This document shows, one piece after another, positions 3,100 to 63,500 of a stretch of 64,000 nt of DNA; position 1 is the first letter of the stretch, and the number at the start of each line of letters is the position of its first letter. Location: positions 23,499,738-23,563,737 of the forward strand of contig NC_092396.1 in NCBI RefSeq assembly GCF_030028105.1. The letters are read 5' to 3'. The notes under the pieces were generated by a model that was not told the origin of the DNA, ran no database searches, and saw only the letters and a program-made list of their open reading frames with translations. Both the position numbers and the translations under genes were made by a program. This DNA comes from Mobula birostris. Its lineage: Eukaryota.

Positions 3100-4148
3100 G
3101 AATTCGCCTGCAGTAAGAGAAGGACAAGCTAAAATCAGATCTATCAGTGTTAAAATGGAGTAAAAGGAATTACAGAGGCATGAGAGAGGAGATGGCTAAA
3201 GGATTGGAAGGGGACACTAGCAGGGGTAACAGGAGAACAACAGTGGCTGGAGTTTCTGGGGGAAAATTGGAAGGTGCAGGAAAGATACATCCCAAAGATG
3301 AAGAGTATTCTAAAGGGAGGATGGGGCAACCATGGCTGACAAGGGAAGTCAAAGACAGCATGAAAGCAAAAGAGAGTGCATGTAATATAGCAAAAATTAG
3401 TGGGAAGGTAGAGGATTGGGATGTTTTTAAAAATCAACAGAAGACAACTAAAAAAAAGGGCCATAAAGTGAGAAAAGATGAAATATGAAGGTAAGATTGC
3501 CAATAATTTAAAAGTGTATACCAAAAGTTTTTTTCCAGATATATAAAGAATAAAAGAGAAATGAAAGTAGATATTGGACTGCTGGGAAATGATGCTGGAG
3601 AGGTAGCAATGGGGGGACAAAGAAATGGCAGATGAGCTTAATAAGTATTTTGCATCAGTCTCACTAGCAGACAGCCAGAAATGCATGAGTGTCAGGGAGC
3701 AGTAGTGAGTGTTGTTGCTATTACTAAGGAGAAGGTGTTTGGGAAGCTGAAAATTCTGAAGGTAGATAAGTCACCAGGACCAGATGGAATACACCCCAGG
3801 GTTCTGAAAGAGGTAGCTGAAGAGATTGTGAAAACATTGGTAATGATCTTTAAAGAATCACTAGATTCTTGAATGGTTCTGGAGGACTGGAAAATTGCAA
3901 ATGTCACTCCACTCTTTAAGGGAGGGAGGCAAAAGAAAGGAAATTATTGGTCGGTTAGCCTAACTTCAGTGGTTATAAAGATGTTGAAGTCTACTATTAA
4001 GAATGAGGTTTTAGAGTACTTGAAGGAACATGACAAGATAGGCTAAAGTCACCTTGGTTTCCTTAAGGGGAAATCTTGCCTGACAAATCTGTTAGAATTC
4101 TTCGAGGAAATAACAGGCAGTATAGACAAAGGAGAGTCAGTGGATATT

Positions 4149-5319
4149 TAAACGCAAACAACAGGAATTCTGCAGATGCTGGAAATTCAAGCAACACACA
4201 TCAAAGTTGCTGGTGAACGCAGCAGGCCAAGCAGCATCTGTAGGAAGAGGTGCAGTCGACGTTTCAGGCCGAGACCCTTCGTCAGGACTAACTGAAGGAA
4301 GAGTGGGTAAGGGATTTGAAAGTTGGAGGGGGAGGGGGAGATCCAAAATGATAGGAGAAGACAGGAGGCGGAGGGATAGAGCCAAGAGCTGGACAGGTGA
4401 TAGGCAAAAGGAGATACAAGAGGATCATGGGACAGGAGGTCCGGGAAGAAAGACAAGGGGGGGGGGACCCAGAGGATGGGCAAGAGGTATATTCAGAGGG
4501 ACAGGGGGAGAAAAAGGAGAGTGAGAGAAAGAATGTGTGCATAAAAATGAGTAACAGATGGGGTACGAGGGGGAGGTGGGGCCTTAGCGGAAGTTAGAGA
4601 AGTCGATGTTCATGCCATCAGGTTGGAGGCTACCCAGACAGAATATAAGGTGTTGTTCCTCCAACCTGAGTGTGGCTTCATCTTTACAGTAGAGGAGGCC
4701 GTGGATGGACATGTCAGAATGGGAATGGGATGTGGAATTAAAATGTGTGGCCACTGGGAGATCCTGCTTTCTCTGGCGGACAGAGCGTAGATGTTCAGCA
4801 AAGCAGTCTCCCAGTCTGCGTCGGGTCTCGCCAATATATAAAAGGCCACATCGGGAGCACTGGACGCAGTATATCACCCCAGTCGACTCACAGGTGAAGT
4901 GTTGCCTCACCTGGAAGGACTGTTTGGGGCCCTGAATGGTGGTAAGGGAGGAAGTGTAAGGGCATGTGTAGCACTTGTTCCACTTACAGGGATAAGTGCC
5001 AGGAGGGAGATCAGTGGGGAGGGATGGGGGGGACGAATGGACAAGGGAGTTGTGTAGGGAGCGATCCCTACGGAATGCAGAGAGAGGGGGGGAGGGAAAG
5101 ATGTGCTTAGTGGTGGGATCCCGTTGGAGGTGGCGGAAGTTACGGAGAATAATATGTTGGACCCGGAGGCTGGTGGGGTGGTAGGTGAGGACCAGGGGAA
5201 CCCTATTCCTAGTGGGGTGGCGGGAGGATGGAGTGAGAGCAGATGTACGTGAAATGGGGGAGATGCGTTTAAGAGCAGAGTTGATAGTGGAGGAAGGGAA
5301 GCCCCTTTCTTTAAAAATA
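4149..5319 (-). mobile_element. Penelope-like element 3' part (GIY-YIG endonuclease and pseudo-LTR) nested in CR1
   Basis: ORF 4584..4910 GVIYC..C..CGLLYIGET.R.L; 12-bp TSD TCAGTGGATATT at 4137-4148 and 5320-5331. Confidence 0.88.
4253..4290 (-). ncRNA. Putative minimal type I hammerhead ribozyme (best-preserved copy)
   Basis: Minus strand reads tagtc-CTGACGA-agg gtctcgg cct-GAAAC-GTC-gactg: intact core, stem I AGTC/GACT, stem II AGG/CCT, palindromic ACGT in place of stem III. Confidence 0.7.
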
Positions 5320-6719
5320 TCAGTGGATATTGTTTATTTGGAATTTCAGGAGGCCTTTGAGAAGGTGCCACACATGAGGCTGCTTAACAAGATAAGAGCC
5401 CTTGGTATTAAAAGAAAGATACTAGCATTGATAGAATAGTGGCTGACTGGCAGAAGAAAGAGTCAGAATAAAGGGACCCTTCACTGGTTGGCTGCCTGTG
5501 ACCAGTGGTGTGCCACAGGGGTCAGTATTGGGACTGTTTCTTTTCATGTTATATGTCAATGATTTGGATAAAGGAATTGATGGCTTTGTGGCTAAGTTTG
5601 CAGACAATGCAAAGTAGGTGGAGGGTAGGTAGTGTTGAGGCAGCAGGATGTCTGCAGAAGGACTTAGGAGAATGGGCAAAAAAGTGGCAGATGGTCATGC
5701 AGTTTGGTAGAAGGAATAAAGGTGTGGACTATTTTCTAAATGAGGAGAAAATTCAAAAATCAAAGGTGCAAAGAGATTTTGGAGTCTTTGTATAGGATTC
5801 CCTAAAGTTTAACTTGCAGGTTCAGTCAGTGTTAAGGAAGGCAAAAGCAATGTTAGCATTCATTATGAGAGGACTAGAATACATAAGTAAAGAAGTAATG
5901 CTTAGGACTTATAAGGCATTGGTCAGACGGCGCTTGGGGTATTGTGAGCAGTTTTGGGCTTCTTATCTAAGAAAAGATGTGCTGGCATTGGAGATACTCC
6001 AAGAGGTTCACAAAATTGATCATAGGAATAAAAGGATTAACATATGAGGAGTGTTGACTCTGCCTGTACTTGCTAGAGTTTATAAGAATGGGGGGGGGGT
6101 CTTATCGAAAACTGTCATGCTGAAAGGCCTTGATAGAGTGAATGTGGAGAGGATATTTCCTATAGTGGGGGTGGGGGTCTAGGACCAGAGGGCACAGCCT
6201 CAGAATAGAGGGATATCCATTTAGAACAGAGATGAAGAAAAGTTTTTTTAGCCAGAATGTGGTGAAACTGTGAGATTCATTGCCACAGATGGCTATGGAG
6301 GACAAATCATTGGGTATATTTAAAGCGGAGATTGATAGGTTCTTGATTAATCAGGGTGTCAAAGGTTACAGGGAGAAGGCAAGAGAATGAAGTTAAGAGG
6401 AATAATAAATCAGCAATGGTGGACCATGCTCGTTAGGCCAAGTAGCCTAATTCTGCTCCTATGCCTTATGGTCCTATGATTAGGTAGTAAGAATCATTCT
6501 GTGGCAAGGCCTTCTGTGATGCAGAGGCCATGGTGGGTTCGGGGTTGGAGCAATGCGGCTAATGAGATGAGGATGAGGGGGAGGTTTGTTCAAGCCCCAC
6601 AGGAAGAAAGAATTTTTACAGCTTTCTTTCCTTCATCCCTGTATTCAGACAGCTGCCAAACCAATTTAAAGCTATAACAACGTAAACAGTTAAACACTTC
6701 ATACAAGTTGAAAGGCTAA

Positions 6720-8019: not shown

Positions 8020-9700
8020 ATACTTGACCACTTCATTTTCATCATGGATGTCCAGTCCCTATATACTTCAATCCCCCATCAAGAAGGGGCTTAAAGCTTT
8101 CTGCTTCTTTCTCAATAAAAGAACTAACCGGTTCCCTTCCACCACCACTTTCTTTGTCTGGCAGAACTGGTTCTCACAGTCAAACAATTTCTCCTTCAGC
8201 TCCCTCCACTTCCTCTAAACTCAGGTGGTAGCTATGGGCACCCAGGTGGGCCCTAGCTATGCCTGCCTTTTCGCTGGGTACATGAAACAGTCCATGTTCC
8301 AAACCTTCACCAATAATGCTCCCCAATTCTTCCTCCGCTGCATTGATGACTGCATAGGTTCTACTTCACACACCCATGTTGAGCTAGTCAATTTCATCAA
8401 CTTTGCCTCCAACTTCCACCCTGCCCTTGAGTTCACTTGGTCTATTTCTGACACCTCCCTCCCCTTTCTCGATCTCTCTGTCTCCATCTCTGGAGACAAA
8501 ACTGTCAACCGCCACCTTTTATGAACCTACTGATTCCCATGGTTATCTTGACCGTATCTCTTCCCACTCTGTGTCCTGTCAAAACGCTATACCTTTTTCC
8601 TCAATTCCTTCATCTCCACCGCATCTGGTCCCAGGATGTGGCTTTTCTTTCCAGTACATTAGAGGTGTCCTTCAAAGAACAGGGTTTCCCTTCCTCCACC
8701 CACAACTTCTCCATTTCCCAAACACCTGCACTCACCCCATCTTCTTGCTGCTTTAATAGTGGTAAGAGTTCTTGTTCTTACTTACCACCCCATGAGCCTC
8801 TGCATCCAACAGATCATTCTCCGCAACTTCTGCCATCTGCACCCCCCCCCCCGCCTTACGCAGGGATTCGTAAACATCCTGATGAAGGGTTCCGGCCCGA
8901 AAAGTCGACTGATCGTTTCCACGGATGCTGCCCGACCTGCTGAGTTCCTCCAGCATGTTGTGAGTGTTACACAGGGATTGCTCCCTCTGTGATTCCCATG
9001 TCCATTCATCCCTCTCAGCACTTATCCCTGCAAGTGGCCAACGTGCCCATTCACCTCCTCCCTCACCTCCATTCAGCGTCCCAAACAGTCCTTCCAGGTG
9101 AGGCTGTGAATCTGCTGCAGTCGTCTATTGTGTCCGGTGCTCCTAATGCTCCTCTACATTGGTGAGACCCATCATAAATTAGGGGACCTCTTCGTTGAGC
9201 ACTTGTGTTCCGTCTGCCAAAAGTGGAACTTCTCAATGGCCATTTTAATTCCAATTCACATTCCCGTTCCAGTATATCGGCCCATGGCCTCCTGTTGTGC
9301 CAAGATGAGGCCACACTCAGAGTGGAGGAACAACAACTTATATTCCCCTGGATAGCCTCCAATTTCTCCTTCCGATTAAACAAAAAAAATCCCTCCCCTC
9401 TTCTTCTATTCCCTATTGTGGCCTCTTACCTGTTCTCACCCACCTATCACCTCCCCCGGATCCTCTCCTCCTTCCCTTTCTCCTACTGTCCACTCTCCTC
9501 TCCTATCAGATTCCTTCTTCTCCAGCCCTTTACCTTTTTTAGTGTGGTGACTTCCCCCTTCCTTTCCAGTCCTGAAAGAGAATCTCAACCCGAAATGTCG
9601 ACTGTCTGTTCACTTCCATCAATGCTGCCTGACCTGCTGAGTTCCTTCAGCATTTTGTGTGTGTTGCTTTGGATTTCCAGCATCTGCACAACTTCTCATG
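8020..9700 (+). mobile_element. Decayed Penelope-like element (RT, GIY-YIG, pseudo-LTR)
   Basis: MDVQSLYTSIPH, AMGTQVGPSYACLF, LRCIDD, LYIGET motifs; degenerate hammerhead at 9567-9604. Confidence 0.82.
8869..8966 (+). mobile_element. 98-bp hammerhead-plus-tail mini-insert of Penelope origin
   Basis: CTGATGA-agggttccggccc-GAAAA-GTC-gactg plus tail; flanked by TTACGCAGGGATT / TTACACAGGGATT. Confidence 0.7.
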
Positions 9701-11294
9701 TTGACGGCATTCACGTCAGCCTCCACAGCTGAATGACTGCCAACTGTACCTCTCTGTCACTACGTTCATTCAACAGTCTTACATTATTAGATTTTTGCCC
9801 AACATCCAATTGTGAGGGAGTTGCAACTCGGTCTGATGCCTTTCAGTAAGTTCTTCTCTTTTGTTGATTGTGTTGTCTGAGGTTAAACAATGTTTTTTTT
9901 CCCTCTAAAATCACCTTACAATGATCTTACCTCTCTCTTTCTCTATTCCTCTCTAATCTTTCACCATGCCTCTATTTTCCCCAGATATCCATTCTATTCC
10001 ATGTCTCACGTATTCTCAAATTTAATTATTCCACTTTGGCAGGCATTCACTCAGTTAGTAATGCCTGTAATTCTGGAATACTCTTTCTGGATCTCTCTTC
10101 CTCCCTTTCTTTTTTTTAAAGAAGCTCTTTAAAACCTACTTACCTGTCTACTAGCTCTTTAACAAAAACAGAAAATGATGCAAGCACTCACCAGGTCATA
10201 AGACCAACTGAAGTAGAAATAGGAGATAGTCATCTCATCGTTCCAAGCTGTTCTGCTATTTATTAAGTTTATTGTTGATTGTCTACCTCAGTGTCTTTTT
10301 GATCTTTTAGTGAACACTTGTTGGGCATCCATTGTCCTCTAAGGTGCAGAATTCCATAGTTCATCAACCAGTGAGAGGGGAAATTTCTTGTTTTAATTCT
10401 ACTCGCTTTGAAATTGAGCCCTTTATCCCTCAATGCTCAGTCAGGAGAGCCATCTTCTCTGCAGCTAGCCCGCCAAGCCCTTTAAAGAACCTGTAAAGCT
10501 TCAATGAGATTCTTCTAAATTCCATAGTCCTGGTCCACATCAAAACCACTATCTCTGAAACCAGTTCCCTGAATCTTTCGTGCACTTACCTTAATGGTAA
10601 GTACATCCTATCTTACCAAAGCTGTACCCAATACTGAGTCTTACCAATGTACTAAACAATTGCAATACTGTACAACTTCCATACACTTGTATTTAAATCA
10701 TCCTACAATAAAGAACAAGCAGCTCCAATGTGAAAGAATCAGAGCCAATTTTTCAGACCACGGACCTGTTATCAGAAGTCAAAAAGTGAGACAGTAAGCA
10801 TGTTTTAAGTTTGCAAAGAGGAGGAGGGTATATTGGTTGATGCCCTATGTTTATTGTAAGCCCATTAACTTTCACAGCTATTTCAACTTCTTCTCTCACC
10901 CTAGTTCATGTGGGGACTCCATTCCCTCACTCAACGTATTTATTTACTCTGGCAATGAGACTTTTGTCATCAATGTATTTAAATTGTTTCCCCCTCTATC
11001 ACAGTTAACGTGGCTCTCAAAAGCATCTCCTCTTACTCCCACAATTTTGCTTTTATCCTTACCCATTGTTTTCTATGTTTACATCACCAGCTTCCATATC
11101 CAACAGTTCTCCACAATTTTCAGCAACTTCAACAAGATTCTACCACCATGTACTTCTTCCCATTCACTCCAGCTGCTCCAGTTTTTTTGCTCCTGTCAAT
11201 ATCCTCTTTTGTGATCCTGTCAATTTCTATTTGATAACTTCTCATGTAGATTCTTGGACTATTTTGTTCTGCTTGAAGTTGTTTTTTTTAATCG

Positions 11295-30260: not shown

Positions 30261-30341
30261 CTACAGTACAAGAAGTACTCTATGAGTCAAATTTTGATCA
30301 ATTATAAAATGTAATCTCAAACTAACTAACATTACAACATT

Positions 30342-30435
30342 AACAAAATGCTGCCCGGCCTGCTGAGTTCCTCCAGCATTTTGTGTGTGTTACTCAGATT
30401 TCTAGCATCTGCAGATTTTATCTTGTTTGTCGATT
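30342..30435 (+). mobile_element. 94-bp Penelope tail-only insert
   Basis: tgctgcccggcctgctgagttcctccagcattttgtgtgtg...gcatctgcag; TSD TTACAACATT at 30332-30341 and 30436-30445. Confidence 0.7.
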
Positions 30436-31539
30436 TTACAACATTTGCTGGCATTCAATTTATTGAAATGGTTGATCTTCCAGAGTTTCATCATGACAAG
30501 CAGAAATCAAAACAAATTTCAGCAAATAGCCATAACATCTCTTATACACCTCCAATTCAAACACTCTCCAAATGTCTGGACTATACATGTAAATATAAAC
30601 ACGGTGATGGGCAATGTGTTAAACATAATGTTTTCAAGCTCCCACACTCCCAGTTATTTTATCTTCCTAGACTTGTGTTAATGTCCTCATCTAAATAATA
30701 TGCAAGGTTTTGATTGAGGAAAGATGACAATTGTGTATCTTATTCCTTCCACTTGAGATCAGGGCAAAAATTAAAAATGGGACCTGTGGATTTTTTTTCC
30801 CAGGATTCCAGCATTAGCAATTTCACAATTGAAACACCACAATAATGACTCAAAACTTACTTTAAGATTCAGAATGAAGTTTCATTTTCATCTCTTGATT
30901 TCATTGCAAACCTGCCATAGATTACAAGTTTTTTTAAACACCATTGGCTTGTCATCTTATTAAATAGTCTACCTCCTCATTGGGAGTCAATTTTGAAATG
31001 AAAGTAGATTACATCAGGACTGACTTGCACAATTACAACGATTTGTTTGGGTTGGGTATTTTTCAAGACGATAGATAAGATAAAGGGAAAGAAATGTGCC
31101 AGACAGGAATAGTTCAAGCACATCAAACTGACCGGATTTTCTTCAAGCAAGTGGACTTTCTATGTATTACATTCCTGACACAACCTCAGTTGTGGAAGCA
31201 ATTAAATGAACATTTAAAACATTAAAAGATCCAAACAGGAATGTTTTCCAAACCATCTTAAGTGCATATCAAAACAAGTAGATCTTAACGAATAATGCAG
31301 AAAATGACGGAAACAATACAATGTTGTCATCTCTCCACTGAAGCTGCCTGATGATTTACTATTTTCAACCTATTGTTGTTATTTCATATTCCAGCATCTG
31401 CACGATTTCAGGAAAATAATGTATTACCGCTCCTTTAAAATCCCACCTAGCCAAGGACTTTGACCTGAAATGTTATTTCGACAAATGCTGCTTAACCTGC
31501 TTGGCCTTTCGTCTCTTGCACTTTCTCTATTTATTTCAG

Positions 31540-31990: not shown

Positions 31991-32661
31991 CAACGATCCT
32001 TGTGGGAGTTTTAAAAGCTTGCAGATGCTGGAATCGGGTGGAAAAATAAATACACTGCTGGCCGCTGAGTTCCTCCAGTAGCCTGTTTTTTAAACACCCA
32101 TGGGAGTCTGGCTCAGAAGCCAGAACAGGTCAAATCTAATATAAACGCTGTTTCAAAAATTCTCTAAACACTTGCCAGGGTCAGACAGCATCTGAGGATT
32201 CAAGGAGGAACGTTTCCAAACCATCTGAAAAGTGTATATCAAAACGAGTAGATCTTAAAGAACAAGTAATTCAGGAAATGCTGAAGCTGTCTGACCTACT
32301 GAGCATCTCCAGGGTATTCTGTTTTACTTCCAACATCTGGAGGGTTATTTTTGTTTGTTACTTTGTTATTTTAAAACTTACACATCTAACTACCATTTGC
32401 TGCACCTGCTGATTTAAAGGAAAATTTCAAAGGATTTAAAATCAAAAACGACTCAGGATGTAGGCATAGAACTAAAATTATTGTTTATAGAACAACTTCT
32501 GTCAAGGTTGCTAAGGGAGCAACCCTCTATTCTCTCAAGTTCAGGTTCATTGTCATTCAGACATACAAGTGTGTACTGTCAAATGAAACAACGTTCCTCT
32601 GAAGCAAGGTGCACAACACCGTACATATAACTCACAGACAACACATCCTTTAATAATCCCA

Positions 32662-33376
32662 AACACGAGAAAATCTGCAGATGCTGGAAATTCAAGCAAC
32701 ACATTCAAAATGCTGGTGGAACGCAGCAGGCCAGGCAGCATCTCTAGGAAGAGGTACAGTCGACGTTTTGGGCTGAGACCCTTCGTCGGGACTAACTGAA
32801 AGAAGAGATAGTAAGAGATTTGAAAGTGGGAGGGGGAGGGGGAGATCCAAAATGATAGAAGAAGACAGGAGGGGGAGGGAAGAAGCTAAGAATTGGACAC
32901 GCCAACTGAACTTCTTCTTATAGATGCAGCCTGGCCTGCTGCGTTCCACCAGCATTTTGTGTGTGTGCTTGAATTTCCAGCATCTGCAGATTTTCTCATT
33001 TTTGTGTTTTTAAATTCACTACTGTGAAGCTTCTTACAGTGATGCCTACACTGAAGAAGTTTAAATCTTCTCTTCGACAGGAGTTTAGTGAAACCCTCTC
33101 TCACTGTTCCCCATCTGCAATTTCTTCAGCCCTTCAACTTTTTGACCATACTCTCACCCAGACCCGCTATTACAGCCATATATCCTTCCTTGGAACATGT
33201 CCAGCTCTTAGCTTCTATCATTTTGGATCTCCCCCTCCCCCTCCCATTTTCAAATCTCTTAATATCTCTTCTTTCAGTTAGTCCTGACAAAGGGTCTCGG
33301 CCCGTAACTTCGACTGTACTTCTTCCTATAGATGCTGCCCGGCCTGCTGCGTTCCACCAGCATTTTGTGTGTGTTG
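32662..33376. mobile_element. Penelope insertion with inverted pseudo-LTRs and a probable ORF N-terminal remnant
   Basis: Minus pLTR, plus tail with short ORF, plus pLTR; mutated hammerheads at 32757-32794 (-) and 33279-33316 (+); TSD CTTTAATAATCCCA at 32648-32661 and 33377-33390. Confidence 0.8.
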
Positions 33377-33525
33377 CTTTAATAATCCCAGATATTTTTT
33401 CTGTCTGCTTGGACAGGAGGTACAGAAGCCATGTCACCAGGTTCAAGGACAGCTACTTCCATTTGGTTCTAGAATCTACCAGAACAATTTCAATCCCTGC
33501 AGTGTAACAGCATGATGATCACCTT

Positions 33526-33754
33526 CAAAGTTGCTGATGAATGCAGCAGGCCAGGCAGCATCTCTAGGAAGAGGTACATCCGACGTTTCAGGCCGAGACC
33601 CTTCCTCAGGACTAATCGTTAGTCCTAACGAAGGGTCTCGGCCCAAAATGTTGACTGTACCTCTTCCTAGAGATGCTGCCTGGCCTGCTACGTTCACCAG
33701 CAACTTTGATGTGTGTTGCTTGAATTTCCAGCATCTGCAGAATCCCTCGTGTTA
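33526..33754. mobile_element. Fold-back Penelope mini-insert: two inverted hammerhead-plus-tail arms
   Basis: About 90-bp inverted arms around ggactaa-tcg-ttagtcc; TSD ATGATCACCTT at 33515-33525 and 33755-33765. Confidence 0.8.
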
Positions 33755-35179
33755 ATGATCACCTTGGTCACTTTGCCCGAAAAAAGACTTTGTTGTTTTT
33801 TTGTTCTAAGTGTGTTCTTTCTTGTAAAAAGTCATGTATAATTTATGGGGTTTTTTTACATAAGATGCTATATGCCTATATGTTATGCTGCTAGTACATT
33901 TTTCATTGCGCTTATACATAAGACAATAAACTCCACTTTGACTCTAGCAATAGTTGTAAATCTGTTGATTTCACCCCTCTGATTTTCACTTTCTGATTTA
34001 CTTTTTACTCACTTCAACATGCATCCCATTGCCTTTGTGCTTGAGCAGATCCCAGTTATCCCATTAAAACAGAATTTGCTGGAAAATCTGAAATTAAAAA
34101 AAAACAAAATAAAATGGTGGAACTACTCAGCAGTTCTGGTAGCACCTGTGGCGAGAGAAAGAATTATATAAATAATTCAGGTGCTGAGGGGCTGAACAGG
34201 CTGTGTGCCTCTTTGTGCTGGCTCCTACAGTGGACAGAAATAACCATGCTAATTGTTGTTGCGTGAATGAAATCACTGGAGAAAATTACTGGTAGATGTG
34301 AAGCAGCTTCCTTATTGTAACAAACAAGGTACAGCAGACATCACAAGGAGACGCTTTCGGTCAAAAGGTCTGCTGGCTCGACGTGGGGCTCAATACTTTA
34401 TGTGTCCAACATCAAAGGACAGCTCCATATTTACAATGTATGGACAATGCTTTCTTTGAAGGTACATACAACCCTCACACCTCCTGATTCACACCCACAC
34501 CAACGACATCCAAATGAATTTCAATCAGCATGTCTGGACTGCGATTCACAGCTTGTCGGAACTCATTGGTTCAGAGCTGCACCACAAATTAAATGCACAA
34601 TACATATTCAGATATGAAGACTGGGAGCCAAAGTCAATTGCTAAATGTCTATGTCCTAAACCCAAAAATCACTCAACACTAATCAAGGTGAGGTCCAACT
34701 AGAGCGTGATCAGACCAATTTGGATTTCCTTTGATTGGCATTTATTTGTTCTGCTTGGTTGTTTCATTAGCTCATCTTGGTAAATCTACCAAAGCTTCCT
34801 GATGCCTGTCTTCTGTTCTCTTTGCCGTATTTCATTCTCGTCCATTTTAATTTTATCATCTACTTTTGATTTTCACATATTTTACACTTAACGGTTTGTG
34901 ATCTCCAATTAATGAACATACTGCTCCTTCCAATCTGCTAGCACTGCATTTCCAGATCCAGTTGTTCCAACATGGAATCCGGTGGTATGTTATCACTATT
35001 AACTCCTTACTCTTGTTTTTATTCAAAGGTTTATTTTATTATCAAAGCATATATGCAGAATAGAACTCCATAAGATACAGAAAAACCATGGAAACCATTA
35101 ATCCTGTTGGCCTTCTGATTTCAGTCAGTGTTATACCTATACCCAAGATTTATCTGAATCACCAGAGCAGAGTTTTGAA

Positions 35180-35790
35180 CTTATTAAATTGGGGGACCAC
35201 ATCACAGGGCCCCTCCACTCCATCTGCCAAAAGTGGGACTTCCCAGCGGCCAAACATCTTAATTCCCATTCCAGCATTTTGGTCTATCACTCAACTTGTG
35301 CCATGATGAGGCCACCCTCAGAGTAGAGGAGCAACACCTTATATTTCGTTTGGGTAGCCTCCAAACTGACAGAACGAATATTGATTTTTCCTTCTGCTAA
35401 AAAAAAATTACTCCCCTCCCCCTTCTTCTATCCCCTACTCTGATCTCTTACTGCTTCTCAGCTGCCTATCACTTCCCTCTGGGTCCCCTCCTCCTTCCCT
35501 TGCTCCTATGAGCCACTCTCTTCTCCCAACAGGCTCCTTCCTCTCCAGTGCTTTATCTTTCCTACCCACCTGGCCTCACCTATCACCTTCTAGCTCTCCT
35601 CCTTCCCCTCCCTCAAACTTTTCAGTCTGACATCTTCCCCCTTCCTTTCCAGTCCTGAAGAAGGGTGTTGGCCCAAAAATTCGTTTATATATTCATTTCC
35701 ATAGATGCTGCTTGACCTGCTGAGTTTCTCCAGCGTTTTGTGTCTGTGTTGCTTTGGATTTCAAGCATCTGCAGACTTTCTGGAGTTTAT
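35180..35790 (+). mobile_element. Penelope-like 3' fragment (GIY-YIG end and pLTR)
   Basis: gaggccaccctcagagtagaggagcaacacc; degenerate hammerhead near 35650; tail. Confidence 0.75.
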
Positions 35791-36003
35791 GAACTAAATG
35801 GTAAAATAATGCTGCAGGAAAATGTTAGTAACAGATGTAGCAAGTGTTAGGAAGACAACTGGGACATTGACCTAACTTGTAAGAGGGTCGGAACAGAGAA
35901 ATATGGAAGTATTGTTCCAATTTTACAACATGCTGGGTGAAGCTACACCCGCAATGCTGTACACAGCTTTGATCCTCTTATTGAAAAAAGGATATACTGA
36001 TAA

Positions 36004-37104: not shown

Positions 37105-37893
37105 GTGGGTGAGAGGGATACTTTGCTCATAGGGAGACGTGGAATTGCTGGAGTTGGGTGAGTGGGTCGGGAGGTGGCAGAGTGCGAGATGGAATGATCT
37201 GTAGGAACAATCAACCCACTAAATCTGCTTCACTTCATGGAATCATTATGGTTATGCCCTTTACTCCTCCTTTATTCACTAAATCATCAGCTAGACAGTC
37301 CCGTGTGTTTAAAAAAAACACTCAAAAAAAAGAGGAAAATGTTCTGCAGACTTCTTCGGGTTCCCCCGAGTTACTGAAAGCAGTCCAAGAGGTCATCCGA
37401 AAAAGGACGCTTGCTTTTTTAAGGATGCAATCGATTCATTTCCAGCTGTGAGCGACCTCTCTTCCATTTTGAAGGCCCACACCTGGCATATCAGGTAGCA
37501 ACTTGGGCGATGGTTCCGGAACTCTCATGGAACCCATCGGGTGAGGTTTGGAGAGATTGAGTGGAAATATACTCCAATGTTGCCTGAAATAGTTGAATGA
37601 GTGAAGAGAGGTTCAACATGAGCACAAGCGATTCTGCAGAGGCTGAAAACACAAACTGCTGGAGCAAGTCAGGCAGAAGGCTCTCTGCCCACACGTCGAT
37701 TGTTTATTCCCCTCCATAGATGCTGCCTGACTTGCTGAGTTTCTGCAGCTTTTTGTGTGGGGCTTCAAAACGAACTGTTTTCTGCTACTGTATACAGAGG
37801 TTTAGGTTATTAATTCTGTATGTATTGTCCTGTGCTCACCTGTTGCATTTTTCTTCTTCTCTCCCCCCCCCCGCCCCCCCAACCTCTAATTAG

Positions 37894-41030: not shown

Positions 41031-41464
41031 CACATGATTCAATCCCTCCCTGTCTCCTGATCTCATTTTGTGGTTGAGAAGAGCCTTTAAATTTATACTT
41101 GAGCATCAATTTTTTGTTTTGGTTAAATTTAGCTGGTTTTTGAATGATGGAAGTAGCTTTAGGTTGTTTTATGTTAATATATGCTCCAGTAAGTAATGAC
41201 TTCATAATGTGTTTAGAATATTATTTCCGTGGACGTTTCATAATTTTGAAAACATGAAACGTGATGATGGGCAGTTGTGATAATGGTTGGAAAAACTTAA
41301 GGAAAAAATAAAGCAAAAATTGAAGTAGAAATTATTTACAGTTTGATTTAGGATTCTGTGAAATACTGAAGAAAAATCTAGCGTTGCAGTTGTAAATACA
41401 TAATTGGAACTTTGATAATGAAGTGACCCTTTATGCACAGCTTAGTTAATTTAAATTTAGTTCA

Positions 41465-42720
41465 TAAGCAAGAGAAAGGCTGCAGATGCTGGAGATCCAA
41501 AGCAACACACACAAAATGTGTGTTACAAAATGCTGGAGAAACTCAACAGGCCAGGCAGCTTCTATGGAAATGAATAAATAGTCAGTTTTGGGCTAAGACC
41601 CTTCTTGAGGACTGGAAAGGATGGGGGAAGACACCAGAATAAAAAGGTGGAGGGAGGGGAAGGAGGAGAAATAGAATGTGATGGGTGAAGCCAGATGGGG
41701 AGGAAAGGTAAAAAGCTGGAGAGGAAGGAGTCAGGTGGGAGAAGGGGGTGGATCATAGGAGGAGGGGACCCAGGGGGAAGTGATAGGCATCTGAGAAGCA
41801 GTAAGAGATCAGAGTGGGGAATAGAAGAAGGGGGAGGGGAGTAAATTTTTTTTAGCAGAAGGAGAAATCGATACTCATTCTGTCAGTTTGGATGCTACCC
41901 AGACAAAACATAAGGTGTTGCTCCTCGATATGAGGATGGCCTCATCATGGCACAAGTTGAGCCATGGACCAAAATGTCAGAACAGAAATGGGAATTAAAG
42001 GTGTTTGGCCACCGGGAAGTTCCACATTTGGCGGATGGAGTGGAGGTGCTCGACAGAGCGGCCGCCCAATTTACGATGGGTTTCACCAATGAGGAGGAGG
42101 CCGCATCGGGAGCACAGGAGACAATAGACGAACCCAGCAGATTTGCAGGTGAAGTGTTGCCTCACCTGAAGGACTGTTTGGGGACTTGATTGGAGGAGAT
42201 GGACAGTTGTAGCACTTCAGCCACTTGCCGGGAGGGAGATTAGTGAGGATGGACGAATGGACGAAGCAATCACAGAGGGAGTGATCCTCGCAGAAAGCAG
42301 GGTGGGGTGGGGGAGGTAGGATCCCTTTGGAGATGGAGGAAGTTGCAGAGAATAATTTATTGGGTGCAGAGGCCAATGGGGTGTTGGGTGAAGACAAGAA
42401 GAACTCTATTACTATTAGGGCGGCTGGAAGAGTGTGTGAGCATGGATGTGTGGGAAATGGAGGAGATATGTGTGGAGGAAGGGAGGCCCATTCTTTGAAG
42501 GAAGACGACATCTCTGATGTTCTGGAGAGGAAAGCTGCATCCTGGGAATTGATGTGGTGGACACAATAGCAAGGGAATAGCATTTTTATAGGTGACAGGA
42601 TGGGAAGGGGTATCGTCAAAGATTACTGTGCGAACTGGTAGGTTTTAAAAGATGTTGGTTGAAAGCTTGTCTCCAGAGATGGAGATGGACATCAAGAAAG
42701 GGGAAGGAGGTGTCAGAAAT
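41465..42720 (-). mobile_element. Penelope-like element 3' part in DDOST intron 2
   Basis: RT C-terminus and GIY-YIG remnants; degenerate hammerhead near 41580-41615; tail. Confidence 0.8.
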
Positions 42721-60568: not shown

Positions 60569-63500
60569 GTGAGAGCAGGAGAGGCCTTCACAAACTGGAA
60601 GACCCAGGCAATCCCATATCCTGTTTGCCACACCCGGTTACTTATCCCGTTGAAGAGTCCCGGCCCGAAAGACTGAATGTTTATTCCTGACCGGCTGAGT
60701 TCCTCCAGTTTTTAATGGGTTGGTCTGGATTTCCAGCATCTGCAGAATCTCCTTGTGCTAATGATTTGCGGCTATATATCCTTTCTGACACCCTACTGAA
60801 CGATGTCTGTGATTACACCCGCCCTGACCTCATAAACACATAGCTCCAACTCTGTAAAGAACGATATCTATAAGCAAATGAATATATATCGGTAGCGATA
60901 ACACAAATTGGACCCGTCTAAGTATCTGGACACAGTTATGTAATAGAGTTGCGGAGCTATAAACTCCGATTCTGCTTTAGTTTCAAATGATGTGTCCGTT
61001 TTGACCCGCAGGGTGTATCTTGGCGCCCACTGCTGTGTAAATACTAATACACTTCCGCTATATAGTAATTGTATTTAATACAACTGAGTTACTTAAAACC
61101 ATTTTATGGGACATCTTGGTATACGCATATGAGTGCAGAGGAGTGTGTGTTGATAGATAAACTCTATGTAGTAGTTGTAAGTACATCTACATTCACGAAT
61201 ACATATCCAGAAACCCAGATACACTGTACACAGCAGTGCTATATATACAACAGGTTTGCTATTTCTGGCTGTAATATTGGCAACATTACTCTTGCAGCCG
61301 CCACACGCTCCCTGCAGCAACATCCAATAGCAATCAGCTACAGACTGAGATACCACTGCACCTGTTTCTGCACATCCTGCATGGTGCATTTTGAAACAAC
61401 AAAATGAAAGAAAACCATTCTGACTCTTAAATGACCTGAGGTTTCACTGACTAATATAGCCTGCATGTGAAATAAGAGCAGGTAGTATAGCCTGTTTGGT
61501 AAGATCTTGGCTAATTTGAACCTTGGCCTCAGCTCTACTTCGTCACCGTAATCCCCGATTCCCTTTTCCACCAAAAATCTTATCTTGAATACAGTAAATG
61601 ACCTGGTCTCCAAATTCCCCCGGAGTAGAAAATTCCAAAGAACCACAGTTTTCAAAGGGAAGAAATTCCCCTGTTATATCATTTATTAAATTATTTAATA
61701 ACACATAAAAAAGGAAATTATTTATTTGAAACTGTGCCCCCTACTGGTGGATTCTCCCACAAGCAGAAACATAGTTTCAACATCATCTCTTAAATCATTA
61801 CACATTTCCACCTTTTATGACGGGGACGTAAGGTTAGACTTTGAAAGGTGGGGGGGGGGCGGAGGTGAACACTTGTTAATTGATGTTGATCCAACTGGAA
61901 GAGATGTAAGTAGAAGGGGGACTGGGGTGGTGGGATTGGTCAAGGGCCAGTTAGATCCAAATTGGAATGGCTGTTCTAGTTTAACGTTCCAGTTTAATCT
62001 AAAATTGCTGAATTCCATATTATGTCCTGATTGCTATAACTTTCCCATAGGTTTATTTCAGTAAGATCAGCTGTCATTCTAAATGAAGCATAACTACTGG
62101 AATATTTCTTTGGAAGATACCCATCTCATCTCAGGAATCAACCTTAACTGAATTGTCACTGTTCCACATATATTCCTTCTTAATCAGTAGTCCAAAACTG
62201 CACAGTAAACTACAGCATTATCAGCATCTCGTATTAAGCAGGAGCTCAGTCCTCTTTCATTAAAGGTCAACATCGTGTTTGTCTTCCTAATTACTAGTTT
62301 ATCGAACTCTAAATTTATGTTTTATGAACAAGGACACCCAGAGTGCTTCTACAGCCAGTGTTCTGTAGTTTCTATTTAAACGATACTCTGCTTTTCTAAC
62401 TTTAAAGTGAATACCTCATGTTTTCCTACTTTACATGACATCTGCCAGGTTTTTTGCCCACTCATTCAGCCAAACTATTTAGTTTTGCAGAGACAATGTA
62501 TTCTCACAACCCTTAAGGAGTAGATGCAGGATTGATGTTTATTCTGGCAGGGGTGTTCAGATAACAAACAACGGGAGTCATTTGCACTTTGGAAGTAGAT
62601 TAGATTCAACTTTATTGTCATTTTGCTTACAGATACAAAGCCAATGAAGTGCGTTTAGCATCTGACCAGAAATGCGAAGAATAGTGTTTTTATAAAATAA
62701 CTATGAATAAAAAAAGTGCTACAGCACACAAATATAAAAGTACTGAGACAGTACAATACGAATGCAATACCACTTAGCGCTGTGATGAGAGGTTCAGCAG
62801 TGTCACTTGAACCTTAACTGAAGCATCTGCAAAACATAAATTAGATCAGGAGTCCAGAATGCTACACAGTGCTCTGTGCATGACATGGTCTTGTCAACAT
62901 CCAGTACAACTTGCATTGAGGGGTTAGGGGGTTAGTGGAGGAACAGGATACTGGATTAAAACTTCACCTATAATCTCATCGAATGTAGACAGGCTGAGGA
63001 CCTGAATAACCTGTTATTTCTTGTCCTTATATTTTATCACATTGTCAGCAAATTTAGTTATGGTACACTGAACCCATTCATCTCCATTATTAATATGTGT
63101 GGTAAATAGTTGAAGTTTCACTGAATCATGTGACACCACCTTAATTACATATTTTTCTAATGAAAATGATCCATTAATCTGGACTATTTTCTATTATTTA
63201 GCTAATCCTTTCTTCATGCTAATATATTGTATATCCCCAATAACATGCCCACTTCGAGTTATGAATACTCTTTTCCTCAGTACTTTCTTGGCTGATACCA
63301 TTCCTCGTGTGTGTCCTAGCCCTATTATCCCTCACAAATGCACATTTATCAGGATTCCATTTGTCATTTCTCTTCTCATCTTAACAACTTAGATTTTGGG
63401 GATTTATTTCTCTTTGAAGCCTCTATGATATCCGGTTCTAATGTGGTAAAATTTAGTAAATTATACATATAACTGCGGGAGATTCTTTAGTGTGCATAGC

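Follow-up and report, generated by a model that had tools for sequence, protein, structure and literature searches.

The window, by which we mean the whole 64-kb stretch of DNA analysed here, contains a 98-bp insert (8869-8966) lodged in an older Penelope-like copy and flanked by TTACGCAGGGATT and TTACACAGGGATT, which match at 12 of 13 positions. A sequence-only reading of the same DNA had given the coordinates and length of the insert and the sequences of both repeats, and all of these proved exact. The features of the locus are as follows.

8041 to 8855, plus strand: older host copy, RT and thumb region with stops and frameshifts (5′ edge approximate)
8856 to 8868, plus strand: left copy of the target-site duplication (TSD), 13 bp, from an end-repeat test; single in uninterrupted copies
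8869 to 8876, minus strand: 8-nt stub, likely a reversed piece from the very 3′ tip of the Penelope tail (second, tailed arm), from a tail-end matrix
8877 to 8966, plus strand: long arm, the 3′ part of a pLTR, starting at the 5′ edge of the hammerhead and ending at the proximal (tail-less) 3′ terminus, from pLTR alignment and profile
8877 to 8911, plus strand: minimal type I hammerhead (C3 at 8879, helix II at 8887-8898, predicted cut after 8906)
8967 to 8979, plus strand: right copy of the TSD, with one CpG to CpA change relative to the left copy
8980 to 9704, plus strand: remainder of the host, with a GIY-YIG remnant (~9116-9352) and its own tailed pLTR with a decayed hammerhead (9562-9704)

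The host was recognised at the protein level: 8219-8521 is 50% identical to protein P0093 over 90 amino acids, and 9116-9352 is 39% identical to the GIY-YIG region of P0093 over 38 amino acids (pairwise E 5e-6), the closest named relatives being proteins of Hypanus sabinus and Mobula hypostoma (up to 74%). Together with the Mobula proteins matched by the insert, these relatives point to a myliobatiform ray as the likely source of the DNA. By these matches, the host is a Penelope-like element encoding RT and GIY-YIG; its two pieces, searched alone against Pfam, matched no family. The TSD search applied to 15 candidate regions of the window gave none convincing for the host element itself. Relative to uninterrupted copies, the host is without about 40 nt just left of the TSD of the insert, where a run of C is found (~8843-8855).

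Among random 98-nt intervals, 5 of 20000 had a repeated 13-mer with at most one mismatch within 3 nt of both ends. Uninterrupted Penelope copies at ~5.07 kb and 42.3 kb span the host site and contain the 13-mer once each, with the left TSD copy matching them at 10 and 8 of 13 positions, respectively, and DNA read contigs of uninterrupted paralogues link 8830-8838 to 8970/8972 in all four runs. The insert thus does interrupt an older Penelope RT/GIY-YIG copy, as had been claimed from the sequence alone, and the flanking repeat is absent as a pair from the two uninterrupted copies; a TSD that is merely a built-in repeat of the Penelope consensus was rejected because the site is single in the uninterrupted copies. 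The two flanks are closer to each other than to these copies and have two changes in common relative to both of them, so the duplication postdates the decay of the host. An independent insertion event, also proposed by the sequence-only reading, is borne out as one younger than the host by CpG content (6 within 90 nt, the host having 10 within 805 nt and 12 within 721 nt). The 42.3 kb copy has a weaker look-alike of the TSD 37 nt upstream (9 of 13 positions matching the right copy), which indicates a short internal repeat nearby in the Penelope family.

An assembly artefact at the left junction was rejected on the strength of run X1, the DNA run of the best-matching organism and possibly the source sample, in which one 114-nt contig spans 8793-8906 with 0 differences at a depth of 14.8. 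Positions 8854-8868 are covered by read contigs in run X5 and not in runs X13 and X15, and there was no orthologous empty site with a single 13-mer among the best 15 of 347 joints.

Composition of the insert and its hammerhead motif

From 8877 onward, the insert aligns at 75-80% with the hammerhead-bearing pLTRs of ORF-bearing Penelope copies in the window; no ORF-bearing copy of its own subfamily was seen. The 5′ ends of this arm and of the arm at 60645 were taken from a profile of 19 pLTR pieces in the 64-kb window, as local alignment, with references from other subfamilies, began too far in. The 3′ ends of these pLTRs form two groups, tail-less (five arms ending within about 10 nt) and tailed (~40 nt further on), and the insert ends with the tail-less group. 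Positions 8967-8968 (TT) are compatible with both pLTR and TSD. Contigs leaving the locus behind 8968 numbered 430, 455, 244 and 287 in the four runs, and their low-agreement consensus, from the best 24 of 1468 rows, starts like the tail. Two copies (35742-35810 and 41445-41515, minus strand) agree over ~8 further bases past the point where the tail usually stops, which makes the outer 3′ end variable by 10-15 nt. A stop-free frame is present on both strands at 8882-8968.

The sequence-only reading had described the insert as a ribozyme followed by about 55 nt of tail and nothing else. The ribozyme and the long arm are there, but they are preceded by 8 nt that form a piece of their own, likely inverted; similarly, 55 nt do follow the ribozyme, but they are pLTR body, and this side is without the tail proper (~40 nt). 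The 8 nt at the start, CGTAAACA, are not sense pLTR sequence. When reverse-complemented and compared with a matrix of nine tail ends, they reach 10.5 bits, a score attained by 7e-5 of the 8-mers in the window, or ~1e-3 after rough correction for about 20 other choices of register and orientation. The matrix is built from few copies, all of other subfamilies, was set in register by eye and has two columns that run into TSD bases, all of which makes this p-value optimistic. In the same register, 7 of the 8 stub positions also agree with the tail end encoded by the Mobula protein P0120 (codons read by eye). Judged by these resemblances, the stub is likely the reversed end of a Penelope tail, though its last 2 nt may alternatively belong to a helix I that is one base short.

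The insert matched two of 11 candidate proteins, both from Mobula (P0120 and P0121), and none of 8 candidates in a plus-frame search; P0122, a repetitive protein without an aligned stretch, was dropped as a relative. P0120 encodes, in the minus frame, a tailed copy of the insert's subfamily, and the long arm is 90% identical to it at the protein level. P0121 has both endpoints of the long arm at the protein level, and these common endpoints suggest that the long arm is a recurring unit. Unlike P0121, P0120 may continue above the hammerhead; neither continues into the stub. That both proteins end in a minus-frame translation of the insert is probably gene-prediction read-through into a repeat, and the ends of the matches may reflect splicing.

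The hammerhead was identified from its core motif alone. This pattern matches four times in the window against 3.27 expected by chance, so by itself it is no evidence; Rfam gave no match in the 64-kb window at gathering score, and single-strand folding of the insert was no better than that of shuffles (z -0.38). Pattern scans gave 0 matches in viral contigs and 0 in prokaryote genomes, and two matching metagenome loci were rejected as chance, reading as bacterial coding DNA. Intact parts of the motif are its core, an additional base after A9 (between 9 and 10.1), the G10.1-C11.1 pair and helix II. Helix I has 2 contiguous pairs (4 with a bulge, by eye) versus 5 in five of eight other copies, and positions 15.2-16.2 are A-G, not C-G, so that the dimer palindrome is lost; the predicted dimer duplex stands at +0.7 kcal/mol, versus -3.1 kcal/mol in three copies with C-G. 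The hammerhead at 8877-8911 is accordingly modelled as weak in pairing and predicted to be inactive. According to Cervera and de la Pena (PMC4209133), the 15.2-16.2 palindrome is a conserved feature of minimal hammerheads, a single motif did not cleave, and most minimal hammerheads are single and probably part of truncated Penelope-like elements (PLEs). Self-cleavage was rejected as the origin of the 5′ end, because the arm starts at 8877, 30 nt upstream of the cut site (8907). At 9545-9571, 35630-35654 and 4286-4310 (minus strand), a pyrimidine run and AG resembling a 3′ splice acceptor stand directly before the hammerhead, in both pLTR families; this AG also falls within helix I or right beside it.

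Neighbouring inserts and competing explanations

Five of the 15 candidate regions searched gave TSDs of 10-14 bp, and ten gave none convincing. The neighbours of the 98-bp insert among the five are listed with the frequency of such a TSD in a null set.

4137 to 5331, minus strand: 1171-bp 5′-truncated tailed copy (4149-5319), exact 12-bp TSD (null 11/5000)
30332 to 30445, plus strand: 94-bp insert (30342-30435) without a hammerhead, exact 10-bp TSD (null 18/5000)
32648 to 33390, no strand assigned: 715-bp insert (32662-33376), exact 14-bp TSD (null 3/5000)
33515 to 33765, no strand assigned: 229-bp head-to-head pair (33526-33754), exact 11-bp TSD (null 3/5000)

In four of the five TSD-bounded inserts, two arms meet head to head, one with a tail and the other without. 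Both arms of the 229-bp pair begin 6-7 nt above hammerhead C3, and the 715-bp insert is made up of an inverted tailed arm, a 5′ pLTR, an ORF start, an internal deletion and a tail-less 3′ pLTR. The ORF of the latter, with an ATG at 33042 and ~50 open codons, is 46% identical over 35 amino acids to the N-terminus of P0093, and the position of the ATG means that the ORF starts ~40 nt after the tail. The 94-bp insert is a mirror case of the 98-bp insert, with a tailed plus arm whose start is overlapped by a short tail-less stub, likely inverted; as it is without a hammerhead, the ribozyme is not needed for such a unit. In the 98-bp insert itself, the inverted arm is the 8-nt stub, and its assignment is less sure than in the 229- and 715-bp neighbours. 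The 1171-bp copy has no clear inverted arm, its first few bases are unassigned, and it is uninterrupted across the host site. The 229-bp insert is a near-palindrome whose arms start at the same base after CAG, are separated by a 3-nt spacer and are only 88% complementary. At 37621-37760 lies what is likely another two-armed insert, older and decayed, with a tail on its minus arm and none on its plus arm; its TSD is no longer clear.

We consider it quite probable that the 98-bp insert is an ordinary, extremely truncated two-armed Penelope-like copy, dead on arrival, and not a separate ribozyme element; most likely, it is a new copy of a known insertion type with both arms near the lower size limit. 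PLE units with an inverted 5′-truncated copy, a tail at one end and TSDs of 9-10 bp have been described (PMC3846280, PMC8557442), and de novo PLE insertions in Chlamydomonas have a median length of 128 bp (PMC9977147). In vitro, a Poseidon protein makes nicks in both strands and extends them, reverse transcription starts at two internal sites on either side of the tail, and hammerhead cleavage is not required (Frangieh et al., PMC11167929). At the present locus, the GIY-YIG endonuclease would have nicked both target strands ~13 nt apart, and each 3′ end would have primed cDNA synthesis from one of the two internal sites that bound the tail, the inner site giving a cDNA of ~90 nt that reaches the hammerhead edge and the outer site one of ~8 nt. 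The two cDNAs would then have been joined head to head and filled in. The TT at each border, common to target and element, may have aided priming, and the hammerhead would be a passenger, carried because of its place in the pLTR. The origin of the stub, the order of events and the inactivity of the ribozyme are inferred, and the copied RNA may have come from an intact element (cis) or from a defective copy (trans). An alternative for the joining step is fold-back self-priming, proposed for palindromic junctions (PMC3846280), which fits the near-palindromic 33.6 kb pair better than the non-palindromic 8876/8877 junction.

The sequence-only reading had instead proposed a separate, non-autonomous ribozyme family, retrozyme- or SINE-like, mobilised in trans by Penelope machinery. 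From this we take up only the machinery, a Penelope RT/endonuclease being likely; the family itself is not supported: the neighbours are of like build, the junction is single-copy in run X1, and at the protein level it is absent from the two Mobula copies. The X1 contig ends at the last 31-mer with a stub base, where the depth of the family rises by orders of magnitude, and other long X1 pieces begin at 8877 or later (best 32 of 121853 pieces). A second locus identical over the junction would be expected to break this contig earlier, so that the junction, as inferred from contig building, is single-copy. This excludes a young family of identical 98-bp units, the test covering copies identical over 31 nt, with older, diverged ones outside it; in the 64-kb window, no second stub/hammerhead junction turned up when as many as 5 mismatches in 20 nt were allowed. 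Nor is the fixed 3′ end a sign of a new family, since it is the site at which RT is known to start internally in Penelope elements. As for a SINE-like unit, searches of the insert for pol III A and B boxes, an A-run and a tRNA gene found none of them.

A looser form of the idea is a non-autonomous, hammerhead-headed solo-pLTR family, in which a short RNA would be copied in trans by the Penelope protein and the stub added at landing; we regard it as unlikely. Of the 13 arms that start inside the pLTR profile, five start within 6 columns at the hammerhead edge, and the three certain edge-starting arms begin right after an AG that is preceded by a pyrimidine run in long copies. The endpoints seen in P0121 point the same way, as does the summed contig depth, which is far greater for the subfamily-specific part than for the host ORF in four of four runs, depth being no copy number; moreover, pLTR sequences alone can mobilise in trans (PMC3846280), and non-autonomous PLEs are present in Chlamydomonas (PMC8557442). 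However, the clustering of 5′ ends has a p-value of 0.03-0.13 with all arms counted and of 0.65-0.90 once the 33.6 kb pair is counted singly and an ambiguous arm dropped, and profile-edge effects can mimic such clustering. Other arms start at +21, +36, +50, -110 and more than 1 kb upstream, the protein evidence is tempered by the possible continuation of P0120 above the hammerhead and by splicing as a source of the Mobula protein ends, and the pol III boxes, tRNA head and A-tail are all absent from the insert.

We give a small but real chance to a discrete short template RNA in ray Penelope, running from after the AG at the hammerhead edge (a predicted splice acceptor) through both RT starts. 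The pLTR intron of D. virilis stops where helix I begins (PMC4209133), and most Penelope transcripts of this species are spliced (PMC2377424). If such a template exists, it would be copied alone, in a strong-stop- or SINE-like manner, and would seed most solo pLTRs in ray genomes, with the second arm made anew at each landing.

It is quite improbable that the insert is a single-armed 5′-truncated copy whose first 8 nt are untemplated or captured and resemble the tail end by chance. The stub is indeed only 8 nt long, and the 1171-bp neighbour also opens with a few bases that form no clear inverted arm, but the low frequency of the stub score among window 8-mers, even when roughly corrected, speaks against chance, and the end that the stub resembles is just the one expected opposite a tail-less arm, with the mirror case at 30342. 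Scarcely credible is a non-LTR retrozyme monomer, reverse-transcribed from a circular RNA that hammerhead self-cleavage had produced: the insert has a type I hammerhead motif and a long TSD, and animal retrozymes are reportedly pLTR-derived, with solo monomers and units down to 51 bp (bioRxiv 10.64898/2026.07.22.740005), but 0 tandem repeats were found at 8500-9800, the motif is minimal and degenerate, not canonical, with helix I and the dimer palindrome broken, the 5′ end lies well above the cut site with no circular permutation, and the 3′ end matches the Penelope start site.

Comparison with known systems and significance

The two-armed Penelope-like copy that we favour is closest in build to the insertion units of EN+ PLEs (PMC3846280, PMC8557442), which likewise have head-to-head arms, a tail at one end, TSDs of ~9-14 bp, strong 5′ truncation and landing sites in older PLE copies. 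It differs from them in that its arms are only 8 and 90 nt long, it has no ORF and its junction is non-palindromic. The copies in the window also resemble PAc (Poseidon of Anolis carolinensis; PMC11167929) in their two fixed 3′ ends bounding the tail, in a hammerhead ~90-135 nt above the 3′ ends and in a pLTR that runs into the ORF start (33042), and the target duplication of the insert ends in ATT, the preferred motif of PAc (one case). PAc is nevertheless a different family, and the ORF homology of one window family starts after the tail, not at stem II; two-armed products are a feature of the window inserts, with no such description for PAc in the accessible text of PMC11167929.

As for the ribozyme, its core, its extra base 9/10.1 and its G10.1-C11.1 pair are those of the minimal hammerheads in metazoan PLEs (PMC4209133), and these hammerheads are found singly or in opposed pairs separated by 100-700 bp, as in the window; the insert is without the palindromic 15.2-16.2 pair and most of helix I (4-5 bp there). 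Non-LTR retrozymes (PMC7229834; bioRxiv 10.64898/2026.07.22.740005) are comparable in their type I hammerhead, pLTR kinship, non-coding nature and long TSD, but they are tandem with canonical hammerheads, whereas the insert is not tandem, its ribozyme is non-canonical and its ends are not set by cleavage. The SINE-like hammerhead repeats of Schistosoma (PMC6765202) are also short, non-coding retroposed units with a hammerhead; in contrast to them, the insert has no promoter head before its ribozyme, and all but 8 nt of it are pLTR. Our literature search, with most subscription journals, repeat databases and supplements outside its scope, found no description of such inserts in rays, and the subfamily may already be catalogued elsewhere. 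At 8910-8915, organisms D and E almost lack the variants that are frequent in A and B, and one variant is frequent in E only, which suggests lineage-specific pLTR subfamilies.

Read as a two-armed Penelope-like copy, the insert offers a clean, small example of a build with two start sites and two arms, and such stumps resemble independent ribozyme elements. Short TSD-bounded inserts in ray genomes would provide a countable test of how the inverted arm originates, by priming at both nicks or by fold-back. The same inserts would allow a test of whether a splice acceptor or a transcript start at the hammerhead determines the 5′ ends in PLE transposition.
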